Origin: Gammaproteobacteria bacterium
GTDB lineage: Bacteria; Pseudomonadota; Gammaproteobacteria; Eutrophobiales; Eutrophobiaceae
Length of the DNA stretch: 64,000 nucleotides
NCBI GenBank assembly: GCA_965221695.1
Contig: OZ244905.1
Location: forward strand, 64,001 to 128,000
Reading direction: 5' to 3'
Position numbers and translations under genes: made by a program. Positions 23,191-56,179 of the stretch are shown here, piece after piece. The notes under the pieces are model-generated. The model saw only the letters and a list, made by a program, of their open reading frames with translations, was not told where the DNA came from and did not search any database. Every line of letters starts with the position of its first letter. Within the stretch, counting starts at the first letter, position 1.

Positions 23191-23341
23191 GGAAACTCCG
23201 ATTAGGTCAGAGTTTCCTGCGATACAGGGATGTATCGCCAAATTCAATGACGATAAGTCATTGAATTTGAGAGCAAAACAAAAATCGCATTTTTGTTGTG
23301 CGTGCTCTGACAAGTCCAGGATGGACTTGTTCAGAGCTTCC
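23191..23341 (+). mobile_element. 151-bp MITE, variant copy
   Basis: GGAAACTCCGA...TCAGAGCTTCC flanked by TAAG/TAAG; five hairpins with compensatory changes relative to the other copies. Confidence 0.88.
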
Positions 23342-23403
23342 TAAGATAATATAAGCGGCTTAACCAGGGCAAAACATGGCTCTTGTTTCCGCAATCAGTA
23401 GTT

Positions 23404-24348
23404 ATGACACGATTTGATAACGTGCTCGGACAAATACACAATATCGATATCAAGCTTTTACGTATTTTTCATACGATCGTAAAATGTGGAGGCTTTTCGC
23501 TTGCACAGGCCCAACTCAACCTCAGCCAGTCGGCTATTAGCACGTATATGTCGCAACTTGAAATCCGGTTGGGAATGCGGCTTTGCGAGCGTGGTCATGG
23601 TGTATTCAAATTGACCGATGAAGGTCGCGCAGTATTAGTGGCAACCGAAAAGTTATTTTCAGCTCTGGAGAGTTTCCAGAACGAGGTGACCGAATCACAG
23701 AATAAATTACTGGGTGAATTGCGTATCGGATTTATCGATAACAGCGTGACTCATCCTGATGGACGCATCTGCAAAGCAATAAGAAACTTTATCGAACGTG
23801 CGCCGGACGCACATATCAAGGTCTACATAGGTGGCGCTATTGAACTTGAAGAACAGGTTATGGATGGTAGCTTGCAACTCGCAATCGGATTGTTCCACCA
23901 TCGTTTGCCAAGCCTGGAATATAGTTTTCTTTTTGAAGAAGAACATCTGCTCTATTGCGGCTACGAGCATCCTTTTTATTCCTGTAGTGATTCCGAATTA
24001 ACGCCAGACATTATTGCCAACGCAAATTATGTTAGTTGGGATTACGTGGAGTCTCTACCGGGATGGGAACCACCGTTTTCTTTTCATGACGTCGCTTCTT
24101 CTCCGTATATTGAAGGTATTGCGTTTTTGATCCTCTCGGGTAGGTATGTGGCTTTCCTGCCTACTCACTATGCAGGTTTCTGGACGGAGAAAAACCAGAT
24201 GCGTCCAATTTTGCCCGAGAAGACCAGGCGGACGACACCCTTCCACCTCATTACCAATAAATCTACCAGCAAGTCTCAATTATGCCGAACTTTTCTGGAA
24301 GCGTTGGGGAATCTTTCCAGTATTCCCGGGGACCATAAAGTTCAGTAA
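23404..24348 (+). CDS. LysR family transcriptional regulator
   Basis: DIKLLRIF..IVKCGGFSLAQAQLNLSQSAIS HTH; LTDEG; substrate-binding domain. Confidence 0.93.
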   Translation: MTRFDNVLGQIHNIDIKLLRIFHTIVKCGGFSLAQAQLNLSQSAISTYMSQLEIRLGMRLCERGHGVFKLTDEGRAVLVATEKLFSALESFQNEVTESQNKLLGELRIGFIDNSVTHPDGRICKAIRNFIERAPDAHIKVYIGGAIELEEQVMDGSLQLAIGLFHHRLPSLEYSFLFEEEHLLYCGYEHPFYSCSDSELTPDIIANANYVSWDYVESLPGWEPPFSFHDVASSPYIEGIAFLILSGRYVAFLPTHYAGFWTEKNQMRPILPEKTRRTTPFHLITNKSTSKSQLCRTFLEALGNLSSIPGDHKVQ

Positions 24349-24436
24349 ACATGAATGCTGGTTTCAATCCTTTTTGATAGTGAAGCGCGATGAAATGTAT
24401 AGAATGTATTTGACAGGCCAGTACTAGAGCCCGCAA

Positions 24437-24715
24437 GTGCAAATAGATTATTTATATAACGTAATTGGAAGTATCGGTGTAATTTTGATAGTCGGATCAT
24501 ATCTGCTGTTAACCATACACCGCCTGTCATCCACGGACCTCATCTACTCCGTACTGAACGCGGCAGGAGCAACTATGATCATCTTGTCATTGCTGCATAA
24601 TTTCAATCTGGCCGCATTTTTAATCGAACTTTTTTGGCTGGTTATAAGCATAATTGGTATTGTGCTCGCGCTTAAGGCAAGGATGAATTCCCAAAGTAAA
24701 AACTTGCAAACCTGA
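24437..24715 (+). CDS. Small membrane protein (CBU_0592-like)
   Basis: 92 aa, three TM segments, IG.IGV.LI..SY and LIELFW..IS motifs. Confidence 0.75.
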   Translation: MQIDYLYNVIGSIGVILIVGSYLLLTIHRLSSTDLIYSVLNAAGATMIILSLLHNFNLAAFLIELFWLVISIIGIVLALKARMNSQSKNLQT

Positions 24716-24739
24716 CTCTCTTGGAATTTGTCGTCAGAC

Positions 24740-25966: not shown

Positions 25967-25985
25967 CCTGAAAAGATAATATCTG

Positions 25986-27527: not shown

Positions 27528-27566
27528 ATTATGGCGAGTTATCCACAACAGACGAAAGAAGATACC

Positions 27567-28661: not shown

Positions 28662-28701
28662 GGAAAATTGAAAAGTCAATCCCATATATCCGGGTATTGC
28701 G

Positions 28702-29865
28702 ATGGCCGCTGATGCCGACCTGAAGAACAGGGTCATAGTTGCCGCCAGCATCCTGATGGTGGGCATAGCAGGCAATGCTTTTACACCGTTTGCTCCTTCA
28801 ATCATCGGCGCCCTGGTCGATTATCTGGAATTCTCACTGGAAGCTGCCGGCAGGCTGACTTCGTTGGAGTTTGGCGCCACTTCATTAGGTACAGTTGTGT
28901 CCACGTTGTGCCTGCACCGTCCCGGATTAAATCTTAAACGGATTGCTTTTTTCTGTTTAGTCGCGCTCATCGTCTGTAACCTGTTAACTGTCTTCAGCTA
29001 CGCAAATATGGCTTTACTTGCCACTTGTCGTTTCGTATCGGGATTTGCTGCCGGTATTACCTGGTGCGCTGCCGCTGTCACTGTCACCAGGATAAAGGAT
29101 GTGGAACGCACCTCCGCCTTGCTTTATGGCTCGCCTTATTTCATGGGAGCCATGGGATTATCTTTCTTGCCTCTGATTTATCCGTACTATGGCGTCTCCG
29201 GCGCTTATTTCACGATTATCTTCATCTGCTCGCTTGCCGTACCTGTCCTGTTATTGTATTTCCCTGCAGGCGCCCATCCACAAGCAGCCGGTAACGCAGC
29301 AAATAAAAGTTTTTCGAGCCAGGAAATCTCATGGCTTGGACTTGGCATCCTGTTGCTGGCGTTATTCATCAATTATGCCGCAAATTCCGGCATCTGGTCT
29401 TATTTTGAACGACTGGGCGTTTCCTATGGACACACAGCTAAAACTGTAGGGCCTGTCGTGGGAGCAAGCCAACTGTTAGCGTTGGTTGGCGTATTTTGTG
29501 CGGCAGTACTCGGCGGGCGTGTTGGTGAAATTAAACCAATTCTCATCGGCACATTGTTGATAACGATGAGCACGCTTTTACTGTTATTCTCATCATCATT
29601 AACAATGTTTTTCTGTGCTATGGCCATTTTCAACTTTTCGATCACCTTTCTTACGCCTTATTACTTTGTGCTGCTGGGTCGTTTGACGCCTTCTGGCCGT
29701 GGGGTGCTCTGGGGAAACCTGGTTTTATGGTTGGGTTTCTCTTCCGGGCCAGCGCTGGTATCACTCGTGATCAAGAATGGCAATTTTGATTTGTCCATTA
29801 TCCTGACAATAGTTGGTTTTATCATCAGCGCGTTATTGATCCTGGCATTTACAGTCATAGATTAA
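28702..29865 (+). CDS. MFS transporter
   Basis: About 12 hydrophobic segments, WSYFERLG motif. Confidence 0.88.
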   Translation: MAADADLKNRVIVAASILMVGIAGNAFTPFAPSIIGALVDYLEFSLEAAGRLTSLEFGATSLGTVVSTLCLHRPGLNLKRIAFFCLVALIVCNLLTVFSYANMALLATCRFVSGFAAGITWCAAAVTVTRIKDVERTSALLYGSPYFMGAMGLSFLPLIYPYYGVSGAYFTIIFICSLAVPVLLLYFPAGAHPQAAGNAANKSFSSQEISWLGLGILLLALFINYAANSGIWSYFERLGVSYGHTAKTVGPVVGASQLLALVGVFCAAVLGGRVGEIKPILIGTLLITMSTLLLLFSSSLTMFFCAMAIFNFSITFLTPYYFVLLGRLTPSGRGVLWGNLVLWLGFSSGPALVSLVIKNGNFDLSIILTIVGFIISALLILAFTVID

Positions 29866-29912
29866 CGCAATCCGGGCCAGCCTTTATGATTTATGGAGCC
29901 TCTGAGACTTAA

Positions 29913-30063
29913 GGAACCTCTGATTAAGTCAGAGGTTCCTACGATACAAGGATGTATCGTCAATATCAATGACTGTAAGGCATTGATATTGTGAGGAAAA
30001 CAAAAATCGCATTTTTGTTTTCCGTACTCTGACAAGTCCAGGATGGACTTGTTCAGAGTTTCC
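29913..30063 (+). mobile_element. 151-bp MITE nested in a TIR-only palindrome
   Basis: TTAA-GGAACCTCTGA...TCAGAGTTTCC-TTAA; outer flanks GGAGCCTCTGAGAC and TCAGAGATTCT. Confidence 0.9.
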
Positions 30064-30078
30064 TTAATCAGAGATTCT

Positions 30079-31170
30079 TTATGTTAATCCTGCTATATCT
30101 TCAGGAATTACGCCAAGTTTACAAATCACTTTATCATCCAGGCAGACTGTTGGACGCATCAGTAATATATCCCAGTGAATATGGGATACGACAGGTTCAA
30201 GTTCGGAACCATGCCACATGCGCGTCAACAGACTGCTATCACCTATCCCGCAACAAACCGTGCCCCGTAATTTTTCAAATTCCTGGTGCTGGGTCAGCAT
30301 CGCTCTTGAATTGGTACCGAGGTTGAGGTGAACAGGACCATAACGCGCAGAATCATCGGGTTGAGCATTCAGCCAATTACTGAGACGATCTCGGAATAAT
30401 GCCTCGCCTTTGATATCTACAATCTTTCCATTGTCAAACGTTAATAATACAGGCGAGTTCGGTGTTTCATGGTCGTAGGCCGGCTCATACAAGAGAAATC
30501 CGTCAACAGCCATAACGCCTTTGCCCCTGCCTTTGGGTATAACGATCCCGGGAGCTGCCGGTGGCAACGACGCCCAGGTCCCCGTCCATTTCTTCAGGTC
30601 AGGATTCCATAAGAATTCATCCGATGAAATACCTTGTAATCCTTGTATGTCGAGTTCAAAATCCGTGCCTTCTTCCGATGTCATACGCAATGTTTCGGCC
30701 TTGCTAAACAAATCAGCGATATTCCAGGCTTCCTTGCGCAATGCGTGAATGTCTGCGTTCAGCATCGTCCGTATCAGTGTGTCCTCAAGATGGTGGCCGC
30801 CGGGACCATCACCCGGCGAGATAATCCGTGCGCCCCGCTCGACTGCTTGCGCCATGAACTCTGCATACCCCACTGCAAGGTCGACTATCAAGTCTGCTTC
30901 ACGGGCGGCTGCCACAACCATCGGGTTCCATTCATACCCGGGTTGTAATGACGGTGGAGGCGGCATCGCATTCTCGGAAACCGAGACCTGTGCTCCCAAA
31001 GTCATAGCCATACCCATGAACAGGGACACGACATGATGGGGTGTGCGCGAATCTGCTATGATCAATACCTTGGCGCCTGCTTGAAGGTTACACATGTCTC
31101 GGTAGATCTTATCGACTACCACGACAAATTCGGGTTTCAAGCCGGCGCTGACATCTGTCGTCTCAGCCAT
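30079..31170 (-). CDS. Peptidase M29-fold protein, NicX (2,5-dihydroxypyridine dioxygenase)-like
   Basis: KVLIIADSRT, EGTDFELDI, HLNLGTN, HWD; clear paralogue of 31671-32750. Confidence 0.7.
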   Translation of the reverse strand: MAETTDVSAGLKPEFVVVVDKIYRDMCNLQAGAKVLIIADSRTPHHVVSLFMGMAMTLGAQVSVSENAMPPPPSLQPGYEWNPMVVAAAREADLIVDLAVGYAEFMAQAVERGARIISPGDGPGGHHLEDTLIRTMLNADIHALRKEAWNIADLFSKAETLRMTSEEGTDFELDIQGLQGISSDEFLWNPDLKKWTGTWASLPPAAPGIVIPKGRGKGVMAVDGFLLYEPAYDHETPNSPVLLTFDNGKIVDIKGEALFRDRLSNWLNAQPDDSARYGPVHLNLGTNSRAMLTQHQEFEKLRGTVCCGIGDSSLLTRMWHGSELEPVVSHIHWDILLMRPTVCLDDKVICKLGVIPEDIAGLT

Positions 31171-31240
31171 GGATGCTATACTATCAGGATTGGATTAGCT
31201 GTCATATCATCAATCGACAACCTTCTCTATTTTATGTAAA

Positions 31241-31267
31241 AGAACATCTGATTAAGTCAGAGGTTCC
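31241..31267. repeat. 27-bp TIR-only mini element
   Basis: TAAA-AGAACATCTGATTAAGTCAGAGGTTCC-TAAA. Confidence 0.75.
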
Positions 31268-31344
31268 TAAATTTAAAAAACCGAAATTTGACTTTTCAAC
31301 AAACAGATGGAGAGATGTCGAAAATCAGGTTATGGTTGGCTTAG

Positions 31345-31495
31345 AGAACCTCTGATTAAGTCAGAGGTTCCTACGATACAAGGATGTATCGTCAATATCA
31401 ATGACTGTAAGGCATTGATATTGTGAGAAAAACAAAAATCGCATATTTGTTTTCCGTACTCTGACAAGTCCAGGATGGACTTGTTCAGAGTTTCC
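31345..31495 (+). mobile_element. 151-bp MITE
   Basis: Near-identical to 29913-30063 and 56029-56179; flanked by TTAG/TTAG. Confidence 0.9.
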
Positions 31496-31670
31496 TTAGA
31501 TACAAATTCGGTTTAGGTTGCGTTTTCATGACAACGAATAACTTGAGGATATCTTCTGCATAGGGAATCTCCGGGACAATGCAACCAGGCTGCGCAGCTT
31601 GAAATGGTTTATCAGTTCTGCGCCCCGTTCACCCTGTCCATCCATGTAAATACGAGAGGATTTACACATC

Positions 31671-32750
31671 ATGGCAGCTATTACCCCAGATAGTTCATCC
31701 AGGCTCAAACCGGATTTTATTGCTGTAGTCGACCTGATATACAAAGATTTTTGCAACTTGCAACCTGAACACAAAGTGTTGATTATCAGCGATGCCCGCA
31801 CACCGGACTATGTTGTTGCAACATTTCAGGGTCTGGCGCAAACACTGGGCGCAGAGGCCATCCGGATTGAATGTCGTATTCCCAAGGGAGGCGCAACGTA
31901 TCAACCCGGCTCACATTGGCCTTCCATGCTTGCGGCAGCAGCCTTGGAAGCAGACTTGATTATTGACATGGCGGTGGGTTATGCAGACTTCATAGTGGAA
32001 GCAATCAATAATGGGGCTCGCATCCTGTGTCCTGGAGATGGTATAGGCGGACCATTTATGGATGACGTTTTGATTAGAACCGTTCTGCATACCGATATCC
32101 ATGCGCTTAGTCGCCGCGCAGATAATATTGCAGAACGCTTTACCGAAGCAAAGCGTTGCACCGTACTTACCGGAGCTGATGAGTTCAGCCTTGACCTGTC
32201 GGGTCTTGAGGGCGCTGCTGGAGACGGTTTTCTCTGGGACCGGGACAAACAAGATTGGAAAACGCCATGGGCTTTTTTGCCTCCTGCACAACCAGGGGCG
32301 CTGGTTCCTATGGGGCGCGGTCATGGTACGATCAATGTCGACGGCACATTGCTGTATCATCCCGACTATCATGAAAAACCGGATATGCCTCTCCGTCTCA
32401 CCTTTGCTGCAGGACGCCTGGTAGACATAGGCGGCGATCCTGTTCTCGGCTCGCGTTTGGAACGCTGGCTGGAGGAGTTGGGTGATGACGGCGCCTACAA
32501 TGGTCCGGTACATTTTAATATTGGCATCAATCCCAACGCCCTGCTAACCCAGAGCCAGGAATGGGAACGAGTCTACGGTTCCATCACCTGTGGCATGGGC
32601 GATTTAAGCATGCTAAGTAGGATTGGAGATATAGATTTGGACCTGGCATTGAGCAAGTCTTCCGTACATTGGGACTGGACAGTCCTGCATCCAAAAATCC
32701 TGCTTGACGACTGTGTATTTGCGGAAAATGGAAGAATATTTTGCGAATGA
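31671..32750 (+). CDS. Peptidase M29-fold protein, NicX-like (paralogue 2)
   Basis: KVLIISDART, HFNIGINP, HWDW; paralogue of 30079-31170. Confidence 0.7.
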   Translation: MAAITPDSSSRLKPDFIAVVDLIYKDFCNLQPEHKVLIISDARTPDYVVATFQGLAQTLGAEAIRIECRIPKGGATYQPGSHWPSMLAAAALEADLIIDMAVGYADFIVEAINNGARILCPGDGIGGPFMDDVLIRTVLHTDIHALSRRADNIAERFTEAKRCTVLTGADEFSLDLSGLEGAAGDGFLWDRDKQDWKTPWAFLPPAQPGALVPMGRGHGTINVDGTLLYHPDYHEKPDMPLRLTFAAGRLVDIGGDPVLGSRLERWLEELGDDGAYNGPVHFNIGINPNALLTQSQEWERVYGSITCGMGDLSMLSRIGDIDLDLALSKSSVHWDWTVLHPKILLDDCVFAENGRIFCE

Positions 32751-33802
32751 ACAAGAAACGCTCTTTCAGCTTATTCATGGGATATGGTTCCGGTTTTAGT
32801 TTCCCTTATTATCAGACTGTTGCGATTGAAGCAGAACGACTCGGTTTCGAAACTATCTGGACCCAGGATAATATAACTGGTCACGCGCCAATTCCCAGGG
32901 ATATAGAAATACTCGACACCTGGCCTTTTCTGGCAGCCATCGCTGCCTGTACGACCGAAATCCACATGGGTTCCATGGCAACTCCAGCGCTGCGACGTTT
33001 TGCCCCACTGCTGGCAAAAACAATTGCAACCATTGACGTAATCTCCAACGGCCGCGTCAAAGTTGGCCTGGGAGCTGGAGATGACTGGCGTCAGTATGAC
33101 ATGATCGGCCAGCGTTTCCCGGAAGCAATTCAAGAAAGACGGCAAATACTGCAAGAAACTATCGCCGTCATGAAATGTCTCTGGGCGGAGGATTTGGCTA
33201 ATTTCAAGGGCGAACATTTTCAACTACACGATGCAATATTAAGCCCAAAACCCGTGCAAAAACCGAATCCTTGTATTTATCTCGCATGTAACACCAGCAA
33301 AAGACTCATGCCAAGGATGGCTGCGCAACACGGCGATGCGTTGGCGCTGATGTGGGGCCATGAAGAAACAGCGCGTATCGTAGTTGATGCGTTTCAGGAA
33401 GAATGGCTGGCTGCCGGCCGCAAAGTGGAAGACTATCGGGCTCTGCGGTCAGCCTATATTGTCTTTCGCAACGATGAAAACGAGGCAAAAGCGCGTAAAA
33501 ATGTACGTGAGATCACTTCTTTTCCCATCGATACGGAGCCCCAGACCGCTACCCAAGCAATAGTCCCTAAAGGCGCAGACGCAGACCTGGTTGTGTTTGG
33601 AAGGCCAGAAACTATCGCACAACAATTAGAACAGAGAGTGTTTGGCTTGGGATTTAATGAAATGATGTGCTCCTTTGTTGCCTGTGATGATGTCAAGGTC
33701 GATACCGGAGGATATTCCGGCTGGCCGGGGCGCTGGTTGGGGGGAATGCGCCTGTTTGCAGAAGTGGTAATGCCGCTCTTGCTCAAACCGTCACAATCTT
33801 GA
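32747..33802 (+). CDS. LLM class flavin-dependent oxidoreductase
   Basis: AERLGFETIW, LAKTIATIDVISNGR..GLGAG, F.GEHF, PKPVQKP; ATGA overlap with upstream gene. Confidence 0.9.
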   Translation: MNKKRSFSLFMGYGSGFSFPYYQTVAIEAERLGFETIWTQDNITGHAPIPRDIEILDTWPFLAAIAACTTEIHMGSMATPALRRFAPLLAKTIATIDVISNGRVKVGLGAGDDWRQYDMIGQRFPEAIQERRQILQETIAVMKCLWAEDLANFKGEHFQLHDAILSPKPVQKPNPCIYLACNTSKRLMPRMAAQHGDALALMWGHEETARIVVDAFQEEWLAAGRKVEDYRALRSAYIVFRNDENEAKARKNVREITSFPIDTEPQTATQAIVPKGADADLVVFGRPETIAQQLEQRVFGLGFNEMMCSFVACDDVKVDTGGYSGWPGRWLGGMRLFAEVVMPLLLKPSQS

Positions 33803-36606: not shown

Positions 36607-37851
36607 GTGGAGAGATATTCTTTTCCTAAAATTGCCTACCATGCGCTCAGGGGACATAAGCGCTGGAAGCCGGCCTGGCGTACGCCGGAGCCGAAGAAAT
36701 CCTATGATGTAATCATTATCGGCGGCGGCGGGCATGGACTTGCCACGGCCTATTACCTGGCAAAAAAGCACGGTGTCTCAAATATCGCGGTACTGGAACG
36801 CGGTTGGATCGGCGGCGGCAACAGCGGTCGCAATACCCAGGTGACCCGGTCGAACTATTTCTATCCGGAGAGCGCCGCTTTTTTTGAGCATTCCCTGAAA
36901 TTGTATGAAACCATGAGCCGCGACCTGAATATCAACGTGATGTTCAGCCAACGCGGGGTGCTGAATCTTGCCCATAGCGATCATGATATGGAGATGTTGA
37001 CACGCTGGACCAATGCCATCCAGCTTAACGGTATCGATTCCGAGATGCTCACAGCGCAGCAAATCAAGGAGCTCGAGCCGCTCATGGACATTAATGCGCG
37101 TTTTCCTATCGCCGGTGGATTTATACAGTGGCGCGGTGGTATCTCGCGGCACGATGCAGTCAACTGGGGTTATGCTCGCGCCGCCGACGCCCTGGGTGTG
37201 GATATTATCCAGAACTGTACCGTGACCGGCTTGAAAATCAGCCACGGCATGATTACCGGCGTTGATACTTCACTGGGAGATATTTCGGCGGAAAAAGTAC
37301 ATGTCACGGTAGCCGGCCACACCAGTGTGCTAGCGAAAATGGCGGGTATCCGCCTGCCGTTGACCAGCATGGCGTTACAGGCCATGGTATCGGAGCCGAT
37401 TAAACCGGCGCTTAACCTGGTGACTGTGTCCGGCGCGATACACATGTATGTGAGCCAGTCCGATCGCGGCGAGATAGTCCTGGGCGCCGGCGCCGACATA
37501 TATAATTCCTATGCGCAGCGCGGCGGCTACGATAACATCGAATCCTGTATCGCGGCATTCCTGACCCTGTATCCCCGTTTCAGCCGCTTGAAACTCATGC
37601 GCCAGTGGGCCGGTATCGTGGATATCACGCCGGATACCAGCCCCATCATGGGTATGACTCCCGTGCAAAACCTGTATATCAACTGTGGCTGGGGGACCGG
37701 TGGTTACAAGGCCATACCGGCCAGCGGTGACACCATGGCTTATACCATCGTTAAAGACCAGCCGCACGCGCTGATTACGCCATTCTCCCTGGATCGTTTT
37801 CAAACCGGCGCGCTGGTGGATGAATCGGCGGCGGCAGGCGTCGCGCATTAA
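36607..37851 (+). CDS. soxB: Sarcosine oxidase family subunit beta
   Basis: GGGGHGLATAYYLA, GGGNSGRNT, RHDAVNWGYA, GWGTGGYK, AAGVAH. Confidence 0.93.
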   Translation: MERYSFPKIAYHALRGHKRWKPAWRTPEPKKSYDVIIIGGGGHGLATAYYLAKKHGVSNIAVLERGWIGGGNSGRNTQVTRSNYFYPESAAFFEHSLKLYETMSRDLNINVMFSQRGVLNLAHSDHDMEMLTRWTNAIQLNGIDSEMLTAQQIKELEPLMDINARFPIAGGFIQWRGGISRHDAVNWGYARAADALGVDIIQNCTVTGLKISHGMITGVDTSLGDISAEKVHVTVAGHTSVLAKMAGIRLPLTSMALQAMVSEPIKPALNLVTVSGAIHMYVSQSDRGEIVLGAGADIYNSYAQRGGYDNIESCIAAFLTLYPRFSRLKLMRQWAGIVDITPDTSPIMGMTPVQNLYINCGWGTGGYKAIPASGDTMAYTIVKDQPHALITPFSLDRFQTGALVDESAAAGVAH

Positions 37852-37877
37852 ACCGGATAGTCCACGAGACAGGCGCA

Positions 37878-38171
37878 ATGCTGCGAATCTCCTGCCCAAT
37901 TTGTGGTGAACGCGACGAAAATGAGTTTGTCTTCGGCGGTCAGGCTCATATCGCCCGGCCTGAACCTGCGGAGCAGGTATCTGACCGCGAGTGGGCTGAA
38001 TATCTTTTTTTCCGGGACAACCCCAAAGGCGTGCATTTCGAACGCTGGCAACACCGCTACGGCTGCCGGCAGTGGTTCAGTGTTGCCCGTCATACCGTAA
38101 GCCATGAGATCCTGGCCGTGTATCGTCTCGATGAAGCGCCTCCGGAGATAGGCCGGGAAGAAACGGTATGA
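37878..38171 (+). CDS. soxD: Sarcosine oxidase subunit delta
   Basis: CPICGERDENEF...NPKG...ERWQHRYGC. Confidence 0.93.
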   Translation: MLRISCPICGERDENEFVFGGQAHIARPEPAEQVSDREWAEYLFFRDNPKGVHFERWQHRYGCRQWFSVARHTVSHEILAVYRLDEAPPEIGREETV

Positions 38172-41131: not shown

Positions 41132-41684
41132 ACTGAATCCGTGTTACGCATTGCAGGGCAGTGATGGACAGACGCTGGTTTTGCAGACGGATCGCCTGGC
41201 GCTGCAGGCGGTTAACAATGTTCGCAAGCTGCGCTTGCAAGCCCGGCCGGACACGGAGATAAACCCGGCGCCGCTTGAAGCGTTACTGGGCATGGCATTA
41301 CCGCAAAACCCGCGGGAAAAGGTCAACCATGAGCCGGCAGCCTACTGGCTGGCCCCCAATGACTGGCTGCTGCTCGACCCGGCGCCGGCCGGCGGCAATA
41401 TCAGCAATGTATTGCGGGAAGCAGCCGGTGGCGCCACGTGCGTTGTCACCGATGTGAGTGATGCCTGGAGCATCATAGAGATTTCCGGCGCGGATGCCGC
41501 GGCAAAATTGGCGGAAGGCTGCTCGGTAGACCTCGATGACGATGCATTCCCGGTTGGCCGGTATGCTTTGACCCGGTTGCAGCGCCTATCGGTAATCATA
41601 CACAGACTGGACGACAGGTCAAAATTCCACCTCCTGGTTGACCGCAACCTGGCGCGTTTTCTCTGGGATTGGTTACGCATGTGA
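41124..41684 (+). CDS. soxG: Sarcosine oxidase subunit gamma
   Basis: WLAPNDWL, DVSD, GCSVDL...F, A.FLW.WL; ATG 41124 overlaps soxA end. Confidence 0.88.
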   Translation: MSELNPCYALQGSDGQTLVLQTDRLALQAVNNVRKLRLQARPDTEINPAPLEALLGMALPQNPREKVNHEPAAYWLAPNDWLLLDPAPAGGNISNVLREAAGGATCVVTDVSDAWSIIEISGADAAAKLAEGCSVDLDDDAFPVGRYALTRLQRLSVIIHRLDDRSKFHLLVDRNLARFLWDWLRM

Positions 41685-43960
41685 ACCGGGACAACGCACC
41701 GGTTTTCAAGGACCTGGTCCTGGTTGGTGGAGGCCACGCCCATGTCACGGTATTGAAAAAGTTTGCAATGAAACCGGTGCCCGGGGTGCGCATTACCCTG
41801 GTTTGCCGGGACTTGCAGGCGCCTTACTCCGGCATGTTGCCGGGATATATAGCCGGGCATTACCTATTTGACGACGCGCATATCGACCTGGTTCCGCTGT
41901 GCCGATTTGCCCGCGCCCGGTTTTTCCACGATGAAGTCATCGGTCTGGATACGGATAACAGGAAGCTGATCTGCCGCAGCCGCCCGCACCTGGGTTATGA
42001 CATTTTGTCGATTAACGTCGGCTCAGCGCCCGATATCGCCGCAGTCCCCGGCGCTGACGGCAAGGTTATTCCCGTAAAACCCATTGATGGTTTCGTCGGT
42101 AACTGGCGCAAACTGTGTACGCGGATGTTGCAACGTCAAAATGGCGCGCGCATCGGTATCGTCGGCGCCGGGGCGGGCGGCGTCGAACTGGCGCTTGCAG
42201 TTCAATACCGGCTGAAAGCATTGCTGACCGGGAAATGGCCGGATAATACAAGTCCTGAATTTCACTTGTTTACCGATGCCGGCGAGGTCCTTACAACACA
42301 TAACCGCAATGTGCGCGCCAAGTTCCGGCGCGTGCTTAACGAGCGGAACATTCACGTACATACAGGGCACGAGGTGACCGAAGTCAGGGCCGGTGTGCTG
42401 CAATGTGCAAACGGCGCTACTTTTCAACTGGATGAGATCCTGTGGGTGACCAGGGCCCGCGCCCAGGACTGGCCGGGGCAGGCCGGCTTGGATGTTGATG
42501 AACAGGGCTTTATCAAAGTCAACAATACTCTCGAGTCCGTCTCGCATCCCGGCATCTTTGCGGCCGGCGATATCGCGCATATGATTAACCATCCCCGGCC
42601 CAAGTCCGGTGTATTTGCCGTGCGCCAGGGAGCGCCGCTGTCACTGAATCTCCGCAACAGGTTGTTAAATCGCTCCCTCAAACCCTATTTTCCCCAGAGA
42701 GAGTTTCTGAGCCTGATTTCCACGGGTGATCAGTATGCCATCGCCTCACGCTCCTGGTGGGCGCTGGAAGGGCGCTGGGTGTGGCGCTGGAAGGACTGGA
42801 TTGATCGCCGCTTCATGTGCAAGTACAACCGGCTTCCGGAAATGAAGGAGCCGGCACGGCGGGATATTCCCCGCGGCGTAGCCGATAAGGATGCGATCAG
42901 GGAGATATCCGCCATTGCGATGCGCTGTGGCGGGTGTGGCGCCAAGGTGGGCGCGACAGTGCTTGAAAATGCATTGGCTGGCCTTGAACCGATCTCCCGG
43001 GACGATGTGCTTATCGGGTTGCACGAACCTGATGACGCCGCCGTGGCGAGTGTGCCGGCAGGCAAGGTAATAGTGCATACGGTCGATGCCTTCCGTTCAT
43101 TTATCGATGATCCGTACATCTTCGGACAAGTGGCGGCCAATCATGCGCTGAGCGATTTATTTGCGATGGGCGCACAGCCGCAAACGGCGCTGGCAATCGT
43201 GACCGTTCCCTACGCGGACGAAAAGAAGCTTGAAGAGCTGCTGTCGCACCTGCTGCAAGGCGCTCTCAAGGCGCTGAACGGGGCTGGCGCGGCGCTGGTA
43301 GGCGGGCATACCTCCGAAGGCGAGGAACTGTCCCTGGGATTCGCCGTGAACGGGTTGGTTGATCGGGAGCAGATCCTGCGCAAACGCGGCCTGCGTGCCG
43401 GCGACAGAATCGTGCTGACCAAGCCCATTGGCACCGGGACACTGTTTGCCGCCGATATGCGGCACAAGGCTAAAGGCGCTTGGATTACGGCCGCGCTGGA
43501 TTGTATGCTGCAATCAAACCGGGAAGCTGCCAAGCGCCTGTTTGCCCATGGCGCCGCGGCCTGTACGGACGTCACCGGCTTCGGCCTGTTGGGACACCTG
43601 GTGGAAATGATCAAGCCATCTGGTGTCGATGTCGAGATTGACCTGGGCGCGATTCCGTGTCTTGATGGCGCAGAAGAGACGATTGCAGCCGGCATTTTCA
43701 GTTCCCTGCAGCCCCAGAACCTGCGACTGCGCCGGGCGATACGTGACGCTGAGAACGTATCAAAAGATACTCGCTACCCGTTGATATTTGACCCGCAAAC
43801 ATCCGGCGGACTGCTTGCCGGCGTTCCCGCAGAACAGGCCGAAGCCTGTGTTACCGCGCTGCGTGAATTGGGCTATGCCCAAACTGCAATTATCGGCAGG
43901 GTATTGCCTGAGAGTAATAGGCTGGAACCGGTTAGGCTTTTAAAAGCACAGTCTGAGTAA
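41681..43960 (+). CDS. selD: Selenide,water dikinase fused to an N-terminal FAD-dependent oxidoreductase
   Basis: N-term GGGHAH, YSGMLPG, GAGAGG, FAAGD, KSGVFAVRQG; C-term MRCGGCGAKVG, DDAA, VGGHT, TDVTGFGLLGHL, DPQTSGGLL. Confidence 0.93.
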   Translation: MNRDNAPVFKDLVLVGGGHAHVTVLKKFAMKPVPGVRITLVCRDLQAPYSGMLPGYIAGHYLFDDAHIDLVPLCRFARARFFHDEVIGLDTDNRKLICRSRPHLGYDILSINVGSAPDIAAVPGADGKVIPVKPIDGFVGNWRKLCTRMLQRQNGARIGIVGAGAGGVELALAVQYRLKALLTGKWPDNTSPEFHLFTDAGEVLTTHNRNVRAKFRRVLNERNIHVHTGHEVTEVRAGVLQCANGATFQLDEILWVTRARAQDWPGQAGLDVDEQGFIKVNNTLESVSHPGIFAAGDIAHMINHPRPKSGVFAVRQGAPLSLNLRNRLLNRSLKPYFPQREFLSLISTGDQYAIASRSWWALEGRWVWRWKDWIDRRFMCKYNRLPEMKEPARRDIPRGVADKDAIREISAIAMRCGGCGAKVGATVLENALAGLEPISRDDVLIGLHEPDDAAVASVPAGKVIVHTVDAFRSFIDDPYIFGQVAANHALSDLFAMGAQPQTALAIVTVPYADEKKLEELLSHLLQGALKALNGAGAALVGGHTSEGEELSLGFAVNGLVDREQILRKRGLRAGDRIVLTKPIGTGTLFAADMRHKAKGAWITAALDCMLQSNREAAKRLFAHGAAACTDVTGFGLLGHLVEMIKPSGVDVEIDLGAIPCLDGAEETIAAGIFSSLQPQNLRLRRAIRDAENVSKDTRYPLIFDPQTSGGLLAGVPAEQAEACVTALRELGYAQTAIIGRVLPESNRLEPVRLLKAQSE

Positions 43961-46999: not shown

Positions 47000-48469
47000 A
47001 TGCGTGGTAAAAAACAACAGTTGAGACGCCTGCCATCCGTGGATCGCGTGCTGCGGGAAGCGTCTGATTTGGTCGAGCGTTGGGGACATGAGCGGGTGGC
47101 TGCTGCGATACGCAATACGCTAGAGCAGGTGCGCGCAAACATGGAAGAATTCGCTGCTCTCGACAAGTCAGCGCTATTGGAGCAAGTCGTTTCCATACTG
47201 GCGTGCAGGCTGGAACAGGAGTCCGCGGGCAGCCTGGTCAGTGTGTTCAACCTGACCGGCACCGTCCTGCATACCAACCTGGGCCGCGCGGTACTGCCGC
47301 GCGCGGCGCTGGACAACGCGCTGGCCTTAGCCCAGACACCGGTAAACCTGGAATTTGACCTGGAGAGCGGCACGCGCGGAGATCGCGATGAGCATATCGA
47401 ACCACTGATCTGCGAACTCTGCGGAGTGGAAGCGGCAACCGTGGTGAACAACAATGCCGCCGCAGTATTACTGGTATTGAATACTTTGGCAAAAGGCCGG
47501 GAGGTTCCGGTCTCACGCGGCGAACTGGTCGAGATTGGCGGTTCTTTTCGCATCCCGGATATCATGCAGAGTTCAGGCTGTGCGCTGGTTGAGGTCGGTA
47601 CGACCAACCGTACCCATTTGCAGGACTACCACAATGCGATCAATGACAGGACGGCGTTGTTGTTAAAAGTTCATGCCAGTAACTATCAGATCCGCGGGTT
47701 TACCCATAGTGTTCCCGAGAAAGAGTTGGCTCAACTGGCCCACCAGCGCGGGTTGCCGCTGGTTGTCGACCTGGGTAGCGGTAATCTGATCGACTTTGCC
47801 GCATTCAACCTGCCTGATGAGCCTACGGTCGCGCAAGCGCTGAAGAGTGGCGCCGATATTGTAACCTTCAGTGGAGACAAGCTGTTGGGCGGTCCCCAAT
47901 GCGGCATAATCGCCGGCGAACACACATTGATTGCCAGGATGAAGAACAACCCGCTGAAACGCGCGTTACGGGTTGACAAGATAACCCTGGCTGTCCTGTC
48001 AGAGGTGTTGAGACTCTATCAAAACCCCGCGCGGCTTGCACAAGATCTGCCGGCTCTGGCCGCGCTGACACGTCCACCGGATGCTATCCGTGCCCAGGCT
48101 GAGCGGATTGCCCCTGCGCTCGCGGTCGCGCTGGCGCCGCATTATCAAGTCGCGGTCTGCGAATGTCACAGCCAGGTCGGCAGCGGCGCGCTGCCGATTG
48201 ATACACTGGCAAGTTACGGGTTAAGGATCAGCGCGGTGGAAGAGTCGGATGAAGCAATCAGACTGCTGGCGGCATCCATGCGCCGGCTGCCGACACCGGT
48301 CATAGGTCGGATTAACCAAGGCGCTTATTTCCTGGATCTGCGCTGCCTGGATCGGGAGGAAGATTTTATTTCCCAGTTACGGAGTACTGGCCTCGCGGAT
48401 CATTTTCCGGAACATGCGCACGCCGATGATCTTGAGCATCAGCTTTTGGAAAAGGGACGGGGGCGTTGA
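47000..48469 (+). CDS. selA: L-seryl-tRNA(Sec) selenium transferase
   Basis: RRLPSVD, NLTGTVLHTNLGRA, VNNNAAA, SRGELVEIGGSFRIP, FSGDKLLGGPQ (PLP lysine). Confidence 0.96.
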   Translation: MRGKKQQLRRLPSVDRVLREASDLVERWGHERVAAAIRNTLEQVRANMEEFAALDKSALLEQVVSILACRLEQESAGSLVSVFNLTGTVLHTNLGRAVLPRAALDNALALAQTPVNLEFDLESGTRGDRDEHIEPLICELCGVEAATVVNNNAAAVLLVLNTLAKGREVPVSRGELVEIGGSFRIPDIMQSSGCALVEVGTTNRTHLQDYHNAINDRTALLLKVHASNYQIRGFTHSVPEKELAQLAHQRGLPLVVDLGSGNLIDFAAFNLPDEPTVAQALKSGADIVTFSGDKLLGGPQCGIIAGEHTLIARMKNNPLKRALRVDKITLAVLSEVLRLYQNPARLAQDLPALAALTRPPDAIRAQAERIAPALAVALAPHYQVAVCECHSQVGSGALPIDTLASYGLRISAVEESDEAIRLLAASMRRLPTPVIGRINQGAYFLDLRCLDREEDFISQLRSTGLADHFPEHAHADDLEHQLLEKGRGR

Positions 48470-49576: not shown

Positions 49577-49626
49577 GGATCGGGAGTTTGCATCAACCTG
49601 CAGTGAATATCAATGCCGGGCGAGCA

Positions 49627-52011: not shown

Positions 52012-52115
52012 ATCGTCCCCCGTATGTTAATACTGCGATATACAAAAACTGGCATTAATCAGTGTAGAATAACTCACTATAGAAATTATACATAAAATTA
52101 TCAATAATTAATTAA

Positions 52116-52144
52116 GGAATCTCTGACTTAATCTCAGAGGTTCC
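52116..52144. repeat. 29-bp TIR-only mini element
   Basis: TTAA-GGAATCTCTGACTTAATCTCAGAGGTTCC-TTAA. Confidence 0.8.
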
Positions 52145-52203
52145 TTAACAAGACTGACGCTGATATTGATAGCCATCCATAGCGCTGCGCGAGGAGACAT
52201 AAA

Positions 52204-53805: not shown

Positions 53806-53827
53806 TGGCGCGTAATGCGCGCCCCGG

Positions 53828-55174
53828 TCAGAAATCAGGGATCTTGTCGACACCCGGCACTATCGCCACCTGTTCAAAGTCTTCGCCGAAAGGCCGGGTG
53901 GCATCGATGCCCATGACGGAATAGCTGCCGTCGTCTGGCGCTGAAGGATCGAGTTGCCAGAGGGTCATACGCGGCAGGATCATTACGTCTTTCTGCGCTT
54001 GCGCCCGGGTACAGATCGCCCACATAACCTTGTCCATGTCATGGATATCGATATCTTCGTCCACAACCACGGCAAGTTTGCTGCCTTGGGATCCCAGCAG
54101 GGTTGCCAGGACTTGCCTGGCCTCGTTCCTGGCATATTGTTTCATCGCGACGATGCACATCAGCCCGACCCCCCCGGCGCCGTGAAAATGCGTCCGTTTG
54201 ACACCGGCAAACTTGCGTTTTAGCATGGCGTAGCAGGAGGCTTCCATCGGGATCATTTTCAATACGTGGTTGTCGGTTACCGGCACGCCGCTCATTCCGG
54301 CAAGCAGGATAGGATCGTGGCGGTGGGTGATCGCGCTAACCTCCAGAACGGGTTTGGGCGACCCTTGAGTGTAGTAGCCGGTGTATTCTCCAAACGGGCC
54401 TTCATGTTCCCGGATACCAGGCAGCATGCTGCCCTCAATAATAATTTCCGCGCTAGCGGGCACTTCCAGGTCTACGGTCTGACATTTGACCACCTCCAGC
54501 GGTTCGTCCAGCAATGCGCCGGCCAGGGTCAGCTCGTCAACGCCATAGCCCGCTTCCCACTGGGTCGCAATCAAGGCGCTGGGAGCAACTCCCAGAGCAA
54601 TAGCGAGTTCCAGCGGTTCATCCAGCGCTTCCGCTTTCCGGTAATGTACTCCCAGGTGATGAGGCGGTGGCGACAGCACGCCCAGGCGTCGTTTGTCCAG
54701 CACCTGGTGGCGGTATATGGAGGCATTTTTGCCGCCATCTTCGGGATCTTTGCTGATAGCGACACCCAAGGTGATGAACGGGCCGCCGTCCAGTTCACAA
54801 TAGGTTGGGACGGGAAAAGCGGTTAAATCCGCCTCGTCTCCCAGGTGTATCACCTCGTTGCAGGGTCCTTGTTCGATTAGCCGATGTTCCTTCAGGTTGT
54901 CGATGGCATCGAGATATTTGTTATTGGCCTCCAGTTCGGTCGTCTCCAGCGCCTCCAGCATCAAGCGCCGGTTTGCGAACAGTCCGCCCGCAACCCGCAT
55001 CTTATGACCTTTAATGTTCTCGAATAACAGGGCTGGTCCTTCATCGCCCATATCCGAGGCTTTGCGCAAGTAGGCTGCCAACTCATATTCCAGCGCCACC
55101 TCATTGCTGATCCGAACCAGTTTGCCGCTTGCTTCCAGATGCTCAAGGAAGCCGCGCAGGTCTTTGAAGGCCAT
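53828..55174 (-). CDS. UbiD family decarboxylase
   Basis: DLRGFL, DGGPFIT, NASIYR, EVPASAEIIIEG, EGPFGEYTGY, VVDEDID, GIDAT. Confidence 0.93.
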   Translation of the reverse strand: MAFKDLRGFLEHLEASGKLVRISNEVALEYELAAYLRKASDMGDEGPALLFENIKGHKMRVAGGLFANRRLMLEALETTELEANNKYLDAIDNLKEHRLIEQGPCNEVIHLGDEADLTAFPVPTYCELDGGPFITLGVAISKDPEDGGKNASIYRHQVLDKRRLGVLSPPPHHLGVHYRKAEALDEPLELAIALGVAPSALIATQWEAGYGVDELTLAGALLDEPLEVVKCQTVDLEVPASAEIIIEGSMLPGIREHEGPFGEYTGYYTQGSPKPVLEVSAITHRHDPILLAGMSGVPVTDNHVLKMIPMEASCYAMLKRKFAGVKRTHFHGAGGVGLMCIVAMKQYARNEARQVLATLLGSQGSKLAVVVDEDIDIHDMDKVMWAICTRAQAQKDVMILPRMTLWQLDPSAPDDGSYSVMGIDATRPFGEDFEQVAIVPGVDKIPDF

Positions 55175-55189
55175 TATTCTTCCTCTTAG

Positions 55190-55993
55190 TCAGGCCTGCG
55201 GGACATCTTCCACCTGTACCCGAAAACCGGAACGAACATGGGGAAAATAATCCCAGACCGCAAGGTGCTGGGTGCAGCGGTTATCCCAGAAGGCCACGGA
55301 ATGGGGTTCCCAGCGGAACCGGACATGGAAGTAGGGATCTTCGATCTGTTGGAACAGAAATTCAAGTATATGCCGGCCCTCGCGCTCGTCCAGTTCGTTG
55401 ATATGGCTGGTGAAACCGCGGTTGACATAAATGACTTTACGTCCGGATACGGGATGCGCGCGGATTAGCGGGTGCACCGCTTTAGGGTATTTGCCATGGG
55501 GATCAAACCGGCCAAAAGCAATCATGCCGTCATGAGTGGCGGTCAAGCCCTCCAGATAGCTCTTCATCCCGTCGGACAGGGCGTCGTAGGCCGCGTACAT
55601 GCTGGAAAAAACTGTATCGCCGCCCATGGGGGGCAGTGTGTGCAGGTAAAGAATGCTGCCCATGGGCGGAACCTCGGCGCAGGACATATCGGTATGCCAT
55701 TCTTCGCCGGATACATGTTTTGAATTTTCATCCGCATGCAGCTTGCGCACTTCCGGATGATCCGGTAATCCTTTCAAGGCATGTTTCTGCAATGGACCGA
55801 AATACAGTCCGACCCGCTTCAACGAAGCCGGGTCCAGGGCCTGGTCGCGGAAGAAAATCACCAGGTGCGCGGTCAGCGCCTTGTGCAGATCTTCCAATTG
55901 CGCGTCATTCAGCGGTTGCCCCAGGTTGATGCCAGATACGACCGCCCCGATCCGGGGAGTCAATGGCGCCACTTGAATCGTTTGGTATGTCAT
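55190..55993 (-). CDS. TauD/TfdA family 2OG-Fe(II) dioxygenase
   Basis: FFRDQ, WHTD, GGDT.F, HPLIR.HP, WDNRCTQH. Confidence 0.93.
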   Translation of the reverse strand: MTYQTIQVAPLTPRIGAVVSGINLGQPLNDAQLEDLHKALTAHLVIFFRDQALDPASLKRVGLYFGPLQKHALKGLPDHPEVRKLHADENSKHVSGEEWHTDMSCAEVPPMGSILYLHTLPPMGGDTVFSSMYAAYDALSDGMKSYLEGLTATHDGMIAFGRFDPHGKYPKAVHPLIRAHPVSGRKVIYVNRGFTSHINELDEREGRHILEFLFQQIEDPYFHVRFRWEPHSVAFWDNRCTQHLAVWDYFPHVRSGFRVQVEDVPQA

Positions 55994-56028
55994 GCTTGCA
56001 TCCCCTTGAATTCCGGTATAATCGTTAA

Positions 56029-56179
56029 GGAACCTCTGATTAAGTCAGAGGTTCCTACGATACAAGGATGTATCGGCAATATCAATGACTGTAAGGCATT
56101 GATATTGTGAGGAAAACAAAAATCGCATTTTTGTTTTCCGTACTCTGACAAGTCCAGGATGGACTTGTTCAGAGTTTCC
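56029..56179 (+). mobile_element. 151-bp MITE
   Basis: TTAA-GGAACCTCTGA...TCAGAGTTTCC-TTAA; near-identical to 29913-30063. Confidence 0.9.

Follow-up and report, generated by a model that had tools for sequence, protein, structure and literature searches.

Bacterial miniature elements resembling the one described here

Several bacterial MITEs with stable folds are known, among them Correia/NEMIS in Neisseria, ERIC in enterobacteria, and RUP and BOX in pneumococci. Correia elements duplicate TA, while insertion sequences (IS) of the IS5 group leave a 4-bp duplication at YTAR-like targets. REP/BIME palindromes have no target duplication and are associated with a RAYT gene. QMITE2 of Coxiella is a further bacterial MITE, described in the available part of PMC10969869.

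The element analysed here shares many features with Correia/NEMIS, ERIC, RUP, BOX and QMITE2. All are short intergenic sequences that encode no protein, have a higher AT content than their host, and carry terminal repeats and target duplications; their transcripts are predicted to form stable stem-loops. It differs from these described MITEs in its ends and its 4-bp target, a separation made by description only. In addition, it comprises five separate hairpins rather than one long hairpin, and its architecture is retained even where GC contents differ widely. Because IS-derived MITEs are common, the identity of the element is ordinary; what is unusual is how well its fold has been kept.

The ends, the target duplications, the dispersed copies, the absence of coding capacity and the agreement with a real IS were all directly observed. 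Starting from these features, we consider it very likely that the repeats are copies of an IS5-group-derived MITE that are moved in trans; their fold is probably kept by selection at the level of lineages.

Copies in the window

The window, that is, the whole 64-kb stretch of DNA that was analysed, contained six copies together with several shorter related units. The copy at 29913 served as the reference.

29913..30063, + strand, reference full copy, 151 bp, 178.2 bits
29913-29939, + strand, hairpin 1 of the reference copy
29941-29960, + strand, hairpin 2 of the reference copy
29961-29991, + strand, hairpin 3 of the reference copy
29995-30023, + strand, hairpin 4 of the reference copy
30026-30059, + strand, hairpin 5 of the reference copy
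30045-30063, right inverted repeat of the reference copy
29909-29912 and 30064-30067, TTAA duplication of the reference copy
56029..56179, + strand, full copy, 151 bp, 99.3% identity to the 29913 reference, TTAA duplication
31345..31495, + strand, full copy, 151 bp, 98.7% identity to the 29913 reference, TTAG duplication
23191..23341, + strand, full copy of a second subfamily, 151 bp, 86.8% identity to the 29913 reference, TAAG duplication
11945..12099, - strand, degenerate full copy, 155 bp, 118.8 bits, TTAA duplication
9410..9500, - strand, internally deleted copy, 32.9 bits
31241..31267, + strand, solo hairpin-1 unit, 27 bp (inverted repeat plus its inverted copy), TAAA/TAAA flanks
52116..52144, - strand, solo hairpin-1 unit, 29 bp, TTAA/TTAA flanks
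6546..6579, strand not applicable, degenerate hairpin-1-like palindrome, 71% identity to the repeat reference
23097..23130, strand not applicable, degenerate hairpin-1-like palindrome, 71% identity to the repeat reference

The original prediction had been made from the letters of this stretch, and its description of the copies was accurate. The four copies at 23191, 29913, 31345 and 56029 were each exactly 151 bp long, and the reverse copies at 11945-12099 and 9410-9500 proved to be a degenerate full copy and an internally deleted copy, respectively. All six copies were intergenic, as had been claimed. Two sub-patterns of the element had 6 and 4 matches in the window, against 0.00 expected from 100 shuffles, and the density of copies was 6 in the 64-kb window. 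The solo and degenerate hairpin-1 units at 31241, 52116, 6546 and 23097 had been overlooked earlier; the last of these palindromes precedes the 23191 copy by about 60 bp.

Individual copies varied in context and in detail. The copy at 56029..56179 is flanked by a TauD-family gene (- strand) and a beta-lactamase-fold gene (+ strand), and that at 31345..31495 has A, not G, as its base 1. A TonB-dependent receptor gene in the same orientation follows the degenerate full copy, its start codon 32 bp downstream of the end of the copy. In the deleted copy at 9410..9500, the right arm of hairpin 1 and hairpins 4 and 5 were kept, and hairpins 2 and 3 were gone.

Terminal repeats and target duplications

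The ends previously read as GGAACCTCTGA and TCAGAGTTTCC were verified. As terminal inverted repeats, the left GGAACCTCTGA and the right GGAAACTCTGA (reverse complement) agreed at 10 of 11 bases, and in high-GC relatives the repeats extended to 17-19 bp. The flanking 4-mers reported for the window (TAAG, TTAA, TTAG, TTAA and TTAA) are indeed direct repeats. Among the matches listed, perfect 4-bp direct repeats flanked 33 of 64 copies and a further 13 of 64 matched at three of the four positions; as a control, the next four bases outward matched in 2 of 64. Nineteen of the 33 perfect duplications among the matches listed were non-palindromic. A YTAR sequence (TTAA, CTAA, TTAG or CTAG) accounted for 21 of the 33, and the other 12 were various AT-rich 4-mers, again among the matches listed. 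The mobility of the element would be read from its 4-bp duplications; in the one orthologous pair of loci (L065/L080), the element site was occupied in both.

The longest open reading frame overlapping the element was 57 aa. Solo hairpin-1 units and 42-bp repeat-to-repeat units bore duplications of their own, which suggests that hairpins 2-4 are dispensable for the chemistry of transposition.

Relationship to IS5-family insertion sequences

The ends of E. coli IS5 (NC_000913) matched the right end of a window copy at 15 of 19 bases. An IS5-family IS of 1198 bp on the Achromobacter xylosoxidans plasmid pA81 (NC_006830) encodes a transposase (WP_011255161.1) with 59% identity to InsH1 and with DDE_Tnp_1 and DUF772 domains. 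Its ends were identical to those of one MITE copy (L057) at 16/16 and 19/19 bases, and matched a window copy at 11/11 bases on the left and 18/19 on the right. The two copies of this IS on the plasmid were flanked by CTAG/CTAG and TTAA/TTAA. These ends, together with the varied 4-bp duplications, bear out the original assignment to the non-autonomous mobile elements of the IS5 subgroup, and the matching transposase ends that had been proposed as a check were found, on an IS of another organism. pA81 is a betaproteobacterial plasmid, outside the genomes bearing the MITE. In the blastn search of plasmids, a window copy gave a 36-base partial match only, which became interpretable when the search was repeated with a high-GC copy; the matches in a tblastn search of InsH1 against plasmids were dominated by IS5 and ISKpn26.

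The likeness to the E. coli and pA81 insertion sequences covers the terminal repeats, the 4-bp duplications of TTAA/CTAG type and a hairpin formed by the transposase-proximal repeat and its inverted partner. A hairpin-5-type stem-loop was present at the transposase-proximal end of the pA81 IS, although its loop is AGA rather than the AGGAT of the element. In contrast, the element, at 151 bp, is much shorter than the IS (about 1.2 kb) and has no transposase, its left end is a self-paired hairpin, and its interior is unrelated; hairpins 2-4 had no similarity to the interior of the pA81 IS. The absence of a transposase from the window, noted originally, was supported by a Pfam search of 46 long open reading frames, which contained no transposase domain. 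No full IS or transposase was found in 375 kb (window plus flanks), a tblastn search of the window and 90 loci with E. coli InsH1 yielded no match below E 0.2, and pairs of flank repeats 0.7-2.5 kb apart enclosed no IS-like layout. The element, the window and the flanks having no transposase, we regard the element as an IS derivative and not an IS.

Short, stable and palindromic, the intergenic units are found alone and in composite arrays. In this they resemble REP/BIME-like host palindromes, for which the agent of spread would be a RAYT-type tyrosine transposase or recombination, not a DDE transposase. However, varied 4-bp duplications flank the units, their ends are identical to those of a DDE IS5-family IS, and there was no RAYT-like gene among the 46 window reading frames scanned. 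Such an origin is therefore extremely unlikely.

As an IS5-derived MITE, the geneless element would depend for its movement on an InsH-like DDE transposase supplied in trans by a gene elsewhere. The enzyme would recognise terminal repeats of 17-19 bp with the form GGAA..TCTGAACAAGTCC and insert the element at TTAA/YTAR-like sites by a 4-bp staggered cut, which would leave the 4-bp duplication. Hairpin 5 was probably inherited from the parent IS, whose transposase-proximal end already folds in this way. Hairpin 1 is the other terminal repeat paired with its own inverted copy, and can probably move alone as a unit of 27-29 bp.

Conservation of the fold

The predicted fold of the element was highly stable on either strand. 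RNA folding gave -74.9 kcal/mol (z -11.7) for the + strand and -73.9 kcal/mol (z -12.8) for the opposite strand; DNA folding gave -54.4 kcal/mol (z -15.2). All five consecutive hairpins folded as originally claimed, and in the 23191 copy, which has compensated arm changes in hairpins 1, 2, 3 and 5, all four of the paired changes listed earlier were present.

Covariation, which had been suggested as a check, was significant, and the compensatory changes across alignments agree with the earlier claim that the secondary structure is maintained. In a 38-copy alignment made with MAFFT, 95.1% of cells paired and 24 of 61 pairs had changes on both sides, a result equalled by 0 of 500 shuffles. A 55-copy alignment, which was fitted to the structure of the model and so leans towards pairing, gave 94.0% pairing and both-side changes in 47 of 61 pairs, versus 16-28 in slid controls. 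RNAalifold applied to an independent alignment of 18 diverse copies recovered hairpins 1, 2, 4 and 5; among 39 pairs, 24 were compensated. Hairpins 2-4 retained their position, length and pairing in hosts ranging from about 40% to 67% GC. The loop positions C35, A36, G38, G39, A40 and G42 were at least 95% conserved and the stem beneath them covaried. Thus, the five-hairpin layout and two loops outlast complete turnover of the stems, which makes the family a clean natural case for studying what keeps a MITE folded.

Changes private to one copy differed from those shared by several. Pair variants private to one copy comprised 57 mismatches, 26 G-T and 22 Watson-Crick states, and those common to at least three copies comprised 9 mismatches, 9 G-T and 57 Watson-Crick. 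G-T exceeded A-C in the stems (47:18 and 78:38). Counted as distinct states, G-T numbered 26 against 12 A-C in the low-GC group (p 0.03) and 25 against 18 in the high-GC group (not significant); hairpin 2 showed no G-T excess. Private changes were mostly disruptive, implying that single loci are not under selection. Selection would then act on lineages that keep spreading or persisting rather than on individual insertions. The + strand, which runs from hairpin 1 to hairpin 5 and is antisense to the parent transposase gene, appears to be the relevant one; it may function as RNA, or as DNA that is unwound while the element transposes.

Alternative explanations of the fold

The paired changes might instead be a mutational by-product in an ordinary MITE, the fold being unselected and the quasi-palindromes kept by templated correction in replication or by gene conversion between copies. 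Covariation does not distinguish correction from selection, and the concentration of mismatches in single copies looks as if these were recent and uncorrected. The orthologous loci mentioned above are 96.9% identical across 3.2 kb; their flanks differ by 2.75%, whereas the two copies of the element differ at 14 of 151 positions. For hairpin 3, L080 has the variant that is common among other copies, as expected from conversion. However, correction preserves an existing palindrome and leaves the order and size of the five hairpins unexplained, as well as the conservation of the 151-153 nt length and of the loops through the turnover of stems (about 40% to 67% GC). Nor does it predict the excess of G-T over A-C. 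We therefore regard an unselected fold as possible but unlikely.

A different view is that the element is a mobile structured RNA whose + strand transcript is functional, the GGA loops of hairpins 2 and 5 binding the global regulator CsrA/RsmA; insertions would plant CsrA sites in transcribed regions, or the copies would jointly soak up CsrA. The CsrA SELEX consensus is RUACARGGAUGU with GGA in a hairpin loop, according to the accessible text of PMC4347634. Among the matches listed, 28 of 55 copies had this exact consensus at the apex of hairpin 2 when read on the + strand, and none of the 55 had it on the - strand; in the window it had 4 matches versus 0.03 expected. In both hairpin 2 and hairpin 5 the GGA falls on the + strand, unlike the expectation from inverted ends, although the scan pattern used had itself specified GGA in hairpin 5. 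The excess of G-T over A-C falls on that same strand, and in hairpin 2 the conserved loop positions lie above a covarying stem. Hairpin 2 also had a weak match to the Rfam RsmV family (12 bits against a gathering score of 100), and an RsmA-binding RNA derived from a 3' UTR is described in Xanthomonas (PMC7694677).

Nevertheless, the match to the CsrA motif was noticed after the fact. Orientation relative to neighbouring genes was unbiased (9 tandem sense versus 12 tandem antisense; for copies at most 60 nt from a start codon, 13 sense and 16 antisense), as counted by hand on heuristic ORF calls. RNA folding was about equal on both strands, private changes were mostly disruptive, and curated Csr/Rsm families gave no match at the gathering threshold. 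Like Csr/Rsm small RNAs, the element presents GGA in the apical loop of a short hairpin, that of hairpin 2 being the SELEX consensus, but it has two candidate sites instead of many, and is dispersed and mobile where the small RNA is a single regulated gene. No CsrA-type motif was found near the ends of E. coli IS5. We consider a functional structured RNA improbable.

Other roles received attention as well. Between 29800 and 31700 there were no terminator-like sites, and the 6 promoter-like sites were near the number in shuffles (3.5 +/- 1.9), so that a terminator or promoter role was rejected. An IHF site was likewise rejected: the exact core of its consensus occurred in hairpin 3 of just 21 of 55 copies among the matches listed.

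Resemblance to the gyrA RNA motif

At the gathering threshold, no curated RNA family matched the window copies. In high-GC copies, hairpins 4-5 and the CGTGAG junction before them resembled Rfam RF01740, listed in PMC2864571 as the Pseudomonas gyrA RNA motif. The matches spanned the whole 88-position model (37.3, 35.7, 33.8 and 30.0 bits), and a local search with high-GC copies gave E 2.9e-8. However, every score was below the gathering score of 45, the second loop of the motif lacks GGA, and the window copies did not match RF01740. These likenesses might be combined in a transposable RNA module, in which an IS5-type transposase spreads a 151-nt cassette with a + strand that folds into five hairpins, two of them bearing predicted high-affinity CsrA/RsmA-type GGA loops, and the gyrA motif is a domesticated relative of its 3' half. 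This seems quite improbable. If true, insertions would rewire how neighbouring genes are controlled after transcription, or would together titrate the regulator; the gammaproteobacteria concerned would include Lysobacteraceae-type lineages. Both the CsrA consensus in the hairpin-2 loop and the resemblance of the 3' half to this orphan motif can be tested directly and cheaply.

Distribution across genomes

A scan of reference genomes gave at least 55 full five-hairpin matches, 50 of them in 26 assemblies and 5 in the window. Among the matches listed, 43 of 55 were 151-153 nt long, and these matches include versions of 55-67% GC in Lysobacteraceae-type genomes. The element is intergenic in many gammaproteobacteria, uncultured lineages and Lysobacteraceae-type genomes included. 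Overlap with the window did not exceed 300 bp at any locus. Text searches by sequence string and by keyword returned no published occurrence of the family. The covariance model built here can be used to mask or annotate it. One assembly, CBDCSC01, contained a 100% identical copy.

Copies of the element in the window

The repeat of the original prediction was real and correctly described. All four 151-bp copies were confirmed, together with the degenerate reverse copies, and two solo hairpin-1 units absent from that prediction were also found:

9410-9500, reverse strand, copy without hairpins 2 and 3
11945-12099, reverse strand, full-length but decayed copy
23191, 151-bp copy, 86.8% identical to the reference copy
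29913-30063, 151-bp reference copy (+ strand, hairpin 1 to hairpin 5)
31241-31267, solo hairpin-1 unit, flanks TAAA/TAAA
31345, 151-bp copy, 98.7% identical to the reference copy
52116-52144, solo hairpin-1 unit, flanks TTAA/TTAA
56029, 151-bp copy, 99.3% identical to the reference copy

Two further decayed solo hairpin-1 units in the window had likewise been overlooked. The 5' termini of the four 151-bp copies were GGAAC, GGAAA or AGAAC, and the 3' termini TTTCC or CTTCC. Two sub-patterns of the element had six and four matches in the window, against none in 100 shuffles. The flanking 4-mers were as claimed, and every paired arm change of the 23191 variant was found. The reference copy folded as RNA into the five adjacent hairpins predicted for it (-74.9 kcal/mol, z -11.7); its opposite strand folded just as well (z -12.8), and so did the same copy as DNA (z -15.2). 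The placing between genes held for all six copies, each lying between ORFs, and Pfam detected no transposase among the 46 long window ORFs, again as predicted. These ORFs encoded ordinary gammaproteobacterial catabolic and transport genes.

The G+C content of the window was 46-50% at 8001-36000, 54-59% over most of the remainder and 51% at the 3' end. The low-GC stretch (8-36 kb) contained five of the six MITE copies, three of which flanked TonB-dependent receptor genes. A selenium-utilisation pair was also noted (41669-43960 and 47000-48469). In one of its ORFs, AIR-synthase-like (SelD-type) domains are joined to a pyridine-nucleotide-disulphide oxidoreductase domain; a gene for the selenocysteine synthase SelA is close by. 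Sarcosine-oxidase-like genes (38168-41684) were located upstream of the pair.

Target duplications and the matching IS

Duplications were counted at the model boundaries of 64 copies, 55 full and 9 with insertions or extra hairpins. The overlapping loci L007/L043 were removed as duplicates, and the orthologous loci L065 and L080 were each counted. A perfect 4-bp direct repeat surrounded 33 of the 64 copies and a three-of-four match 13 more; the number fell to 2 of 64 when the comparison was moved four bases further out. The perfect repeats were TTAA (14), CTTA and CTAA (3 each), TTAG, TTCA and CTAG (2 each) and seven singletons, and 21 of the 33 fitted YTAR. Because 19 of the 33 were non-palindromic, the 4-mers are duplications and not extended inverted ends. 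The terminal repeats of the MITE have the form GGAA..TCTGAACAAGTCC, and its end agreed with that of E. coli IS5 (NC_000913) at 15 of 19 positions (GGAAGGTGCGAACAAGTCC versus GGAAACTCTGAACAAGTCC). Within the window, the IS-type repeat matched only at the four MITE right ends. A tblastn search of the window and all flanks with InsH1, the E. coli IS5 transposase, found no partner transposase.

An IS with the same ends, which the original prediction had proposed to look for, was found, but on the Achromobacter xylosoxidans plasmid pA81. When plasmids were searched with a high-GC MITE copy, one end of an IS annotated as IS5-family was hit. Its boundaries were set by aligning the two plasmid copies, giving a length of 1198 bp:

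L092 1837-3034 (record 32493-33690), pA81 IS copy
L093 370-1567 (record 37269-38466), pA81 IS copy

The copies were flanked by CTAG/CTAG and TTAA/TTAA. The transposase showed 59% identity to InsH1 and contained DDE_Tnp_1 and DUF772 domains. The ends of this IS were identical to those of the MITE copy at locus L057 over 16 of 16 and 19 of 19 bases, and matched the window copy at 11 of 11 bases on the left and 18 of 19 on the right. By its duplications and ends, the element is a mobile one of the IS5 type. The two pA81 copies are inverted relative to each other and separated by about 3.6 kb with fragments of ABC-transporter and oxygenase genes, a composite-transposon-like arrangement; one of them is overlapped at its end by a 249-bp CDS annotated as 'ATP-binding cassette'.

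At its transposase-proximal end, the pA81 IS already forms a stem-loop, CTGACAGGTCC-AGA-GGACTTGTTCAG, in which the terminal repeat is paired with an inverted partner. The MITE's hairpin 5 shares this structure but has AGGAT as its loop. In hairpin 1, the other terminal repeat precedes its own inverted copy, an arrangement that accounts for the solo hairpin-1 units and the 42-bp repeat-to-repeat units (e.g. L043 1990-2031, flanks CTAA/CTAA) with duplications of their own. Deletion forms fusing hairpin 1 to hairpin 5 also occurred (e.g. L011). No similarity was found between hairpins 2-4 and the interior of the pA81 IS. The + strand of the MITE is antisense to the transposase gene of that IS.

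Correia elements carry a reported central IHF site. In the present element, hairpin 3 (e.g. window 29964-29988) exactly matched the IHF core consensus in 21 of the 55 copies listed, which resembles that site; 20 matches lay on the - strand at about element position 76 and one on the + strand at position 55.

Relatives in other genomes

The reference genomes were scanned with a 21-letter hairpin-5 core common to all six window copies. The scan returned at least 90 stretches, none overlapping the window, and all abundance and host-range figures are lower bounds. A covariance model trained on 38 full copies was finally run on 50 of 91 sources, picked from a first search of all 91. It gave at least 55 full-length matches (E < 1e-17), of which the window contributed 5 and 26 assemblies the other 50. 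The length was 151-153 nt in 43 of the 55 full matches listed, and among these matches the carriers were mostly uncultured Gammaproteobacteria. A few records bore other taxon names, for example Acidobacteriaceae and Enterobacteriaceae MAGs, which are the depositors' and were given no weight. Assemblies with the element included CBDCSC01, OZ252091 and OZ220696, and one copy in CBDCSC01 was 100% identical to the window's. The five-hairpin unit also occurred at 55-67% GC in Rehaibacterium, Arenimonas, Thermomonas and other Lysobacteraceae/Rhodanobacteraceae records, where the primary sequence of the stems was almost entirely gone.

In one subfamily, a further, unrelated palindromic repeat, G+C-rich and 20-70 bp long, was nested at a constant position in the hairpin-4 loop:

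L013 1991-2188, OZ252091
L027 1812-2031, OZ252091
L044 1833-2031, OZ252091
L056 1861-2031, OZ252091
L042 1991-2213, CBDCSC01

This is either a single insertion that later spread or a preferred site of another small repeat. At L007, where a - strand copy occupies 1991-2137, several tandem 20-bp G+C-rich units (GGGAATGACGGGGGGCGCGC) were present some 100-230 bases upstream of that copy.

Maintenance of the five-hairpin fold

The five-hairpin fold is maintained. The compensatory changes first noted in the window extended to a MAFFT alignment of 38 copies, in which 95.1% of cells paired and 24 of 61 pairs were doubly changed; none of 500 column shuffles reached the observed value, and slid controls gave 5-14 pairs. 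In the 55-copy alignment, which leans to the structure because it was fitted to the model, 94.0% paired and 47 of 61 pairs (461 cells) were doubly changed, against 16-28 in slid controls. A model-independent check, in which RNAalifold was run on 18 diverse copies aligned with MAFFT, recovered hairpins 1, 2, 4 and 5 and showed compensation in 24 of 39 pairs; it missed hairpin 3 through misalignment. The seven inner pairs of hairpin 5 were invariant because the scan pattern demanded them.

Variant pair states found in a single copy were mostly disruptive (57 mismatches, 26 G-T, 22 Watson-Crick), whereas those common to at least three copies were mostly paired (9, 9 and 57, respectively). Single insertions therefore decay, whereas the fold is kept in those lineages that spread or persist. 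The L065/L080 pair was 96.9% identical across 3.2 kb, yet the element differed at 14 of 151 positions, compared with 2.75% in the flanks; among these differences, one double change was compensated, two turned G-T into A-T and two were disruptive. Much of this pattern could arise without selection, through templated correction in palindromes or conversion between copies. Neither process explains how hairpin order, size and loops stayed constant through complete turnover of the stems.

Strand preference and a possible RNA role

Three observations point to the + strand: a G-T excess, conservation of the hairpin-2 apex and a CsrA consensus match. G-T exceeded A-C in the stems by 47:18 in the MAFFT set and 78:38 in the larger set. 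The excess was significant only in the low-GC group (26 versus 12 distinct states, p 0.03; high-GC group, 25 versus 18, not significant) and was absent from hairpin 2. The best-conserved columns outside hairpin 5 were C35, A36, G38, G39, A40 and G42 at the hairpin-2 apex, whose ATACA(A/G)GGATGT matches the CsrA SELEX consensus in sequence. That consensus is RUACARGGAUGU, with best binding when GGA lies in a hairpin loop, according to PMC4347634. Exact matches occurred on the + strand in 28 of the 55 copies listed and on the - strand in none; the window had 4, against 0.03 expected. Hairpin 5 also has CAGGATG on the + strand. With the GGA of hairpins 2 and 5 on one strand, the loops are thus direct, not inverted, relative to the inverted ends.

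These features would suit a host-level RNA role, but the surroundings of the copies argue against it. Neighbour orientation was unbiased in the 50 of 64 copies with both neighbours called (18 divergent, 12 tandem antisense, 11 convergent, 9 tandem sense). Within 60 nt of a start codon, 13 copies were sense and 16 antisense, by a hand count on heuristic ORF calls. At 29800-31700 no terminator-like sites were present, and promoter-like sites did not exceed shuffles. What is unusual in this element is how deeply the five-hairpin layout and the two GGA loops are kept, which may reflect transposition mechanics, RNA function or palindrome correction.

Comparison with known elements

The element joins the known class of IS-derived MITEs as a member derived from the IS5 group, for which a matching IS was identified. 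Similar MITEs, such as Correia and ERIC, are analogous to it in kind. Searches of the open-access literature with element sequence strings found no description, and those for a MITE with IS5, CsrA or Xanthomonas did not find the element. REP/BIME identity was ruled out by the target duplications and DDE-type ends. Prokaryotic MITEs typically yield stable stem-loop transcripts, as stated in a review (PMC10969869).

Rfam gave no family at threshold in the window. In a permissive search, hairpins 4-5 of four high-GC copies, their 3' half, scored 30.0-37.3 bits against RF01740, the gyrA RNA motif of Pseudomonas, below the gathering score of 45 yet significant (local E 2.9e-8):

L014 1957-2044
L059 1979-2065
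L017 1836-1919
L057 1963-2035

PMC2864571 tabulates RF01740 only as a probable Pseudomonas cis-regulatory RNA. This orphan motif may be related to the MITE; the matches are a lead to shared descent, not to membership. In the cultured Rehaibacterium terrae DSM 25897, which has copies at L012 and L034, the L012 copy was followed closely downstream by two adjacent cspA thermoregulator matches, at 2243-2661 (82.6 bits, exceeding the gathering score of 78) and 2850-3162 (66.9 bits, below it).
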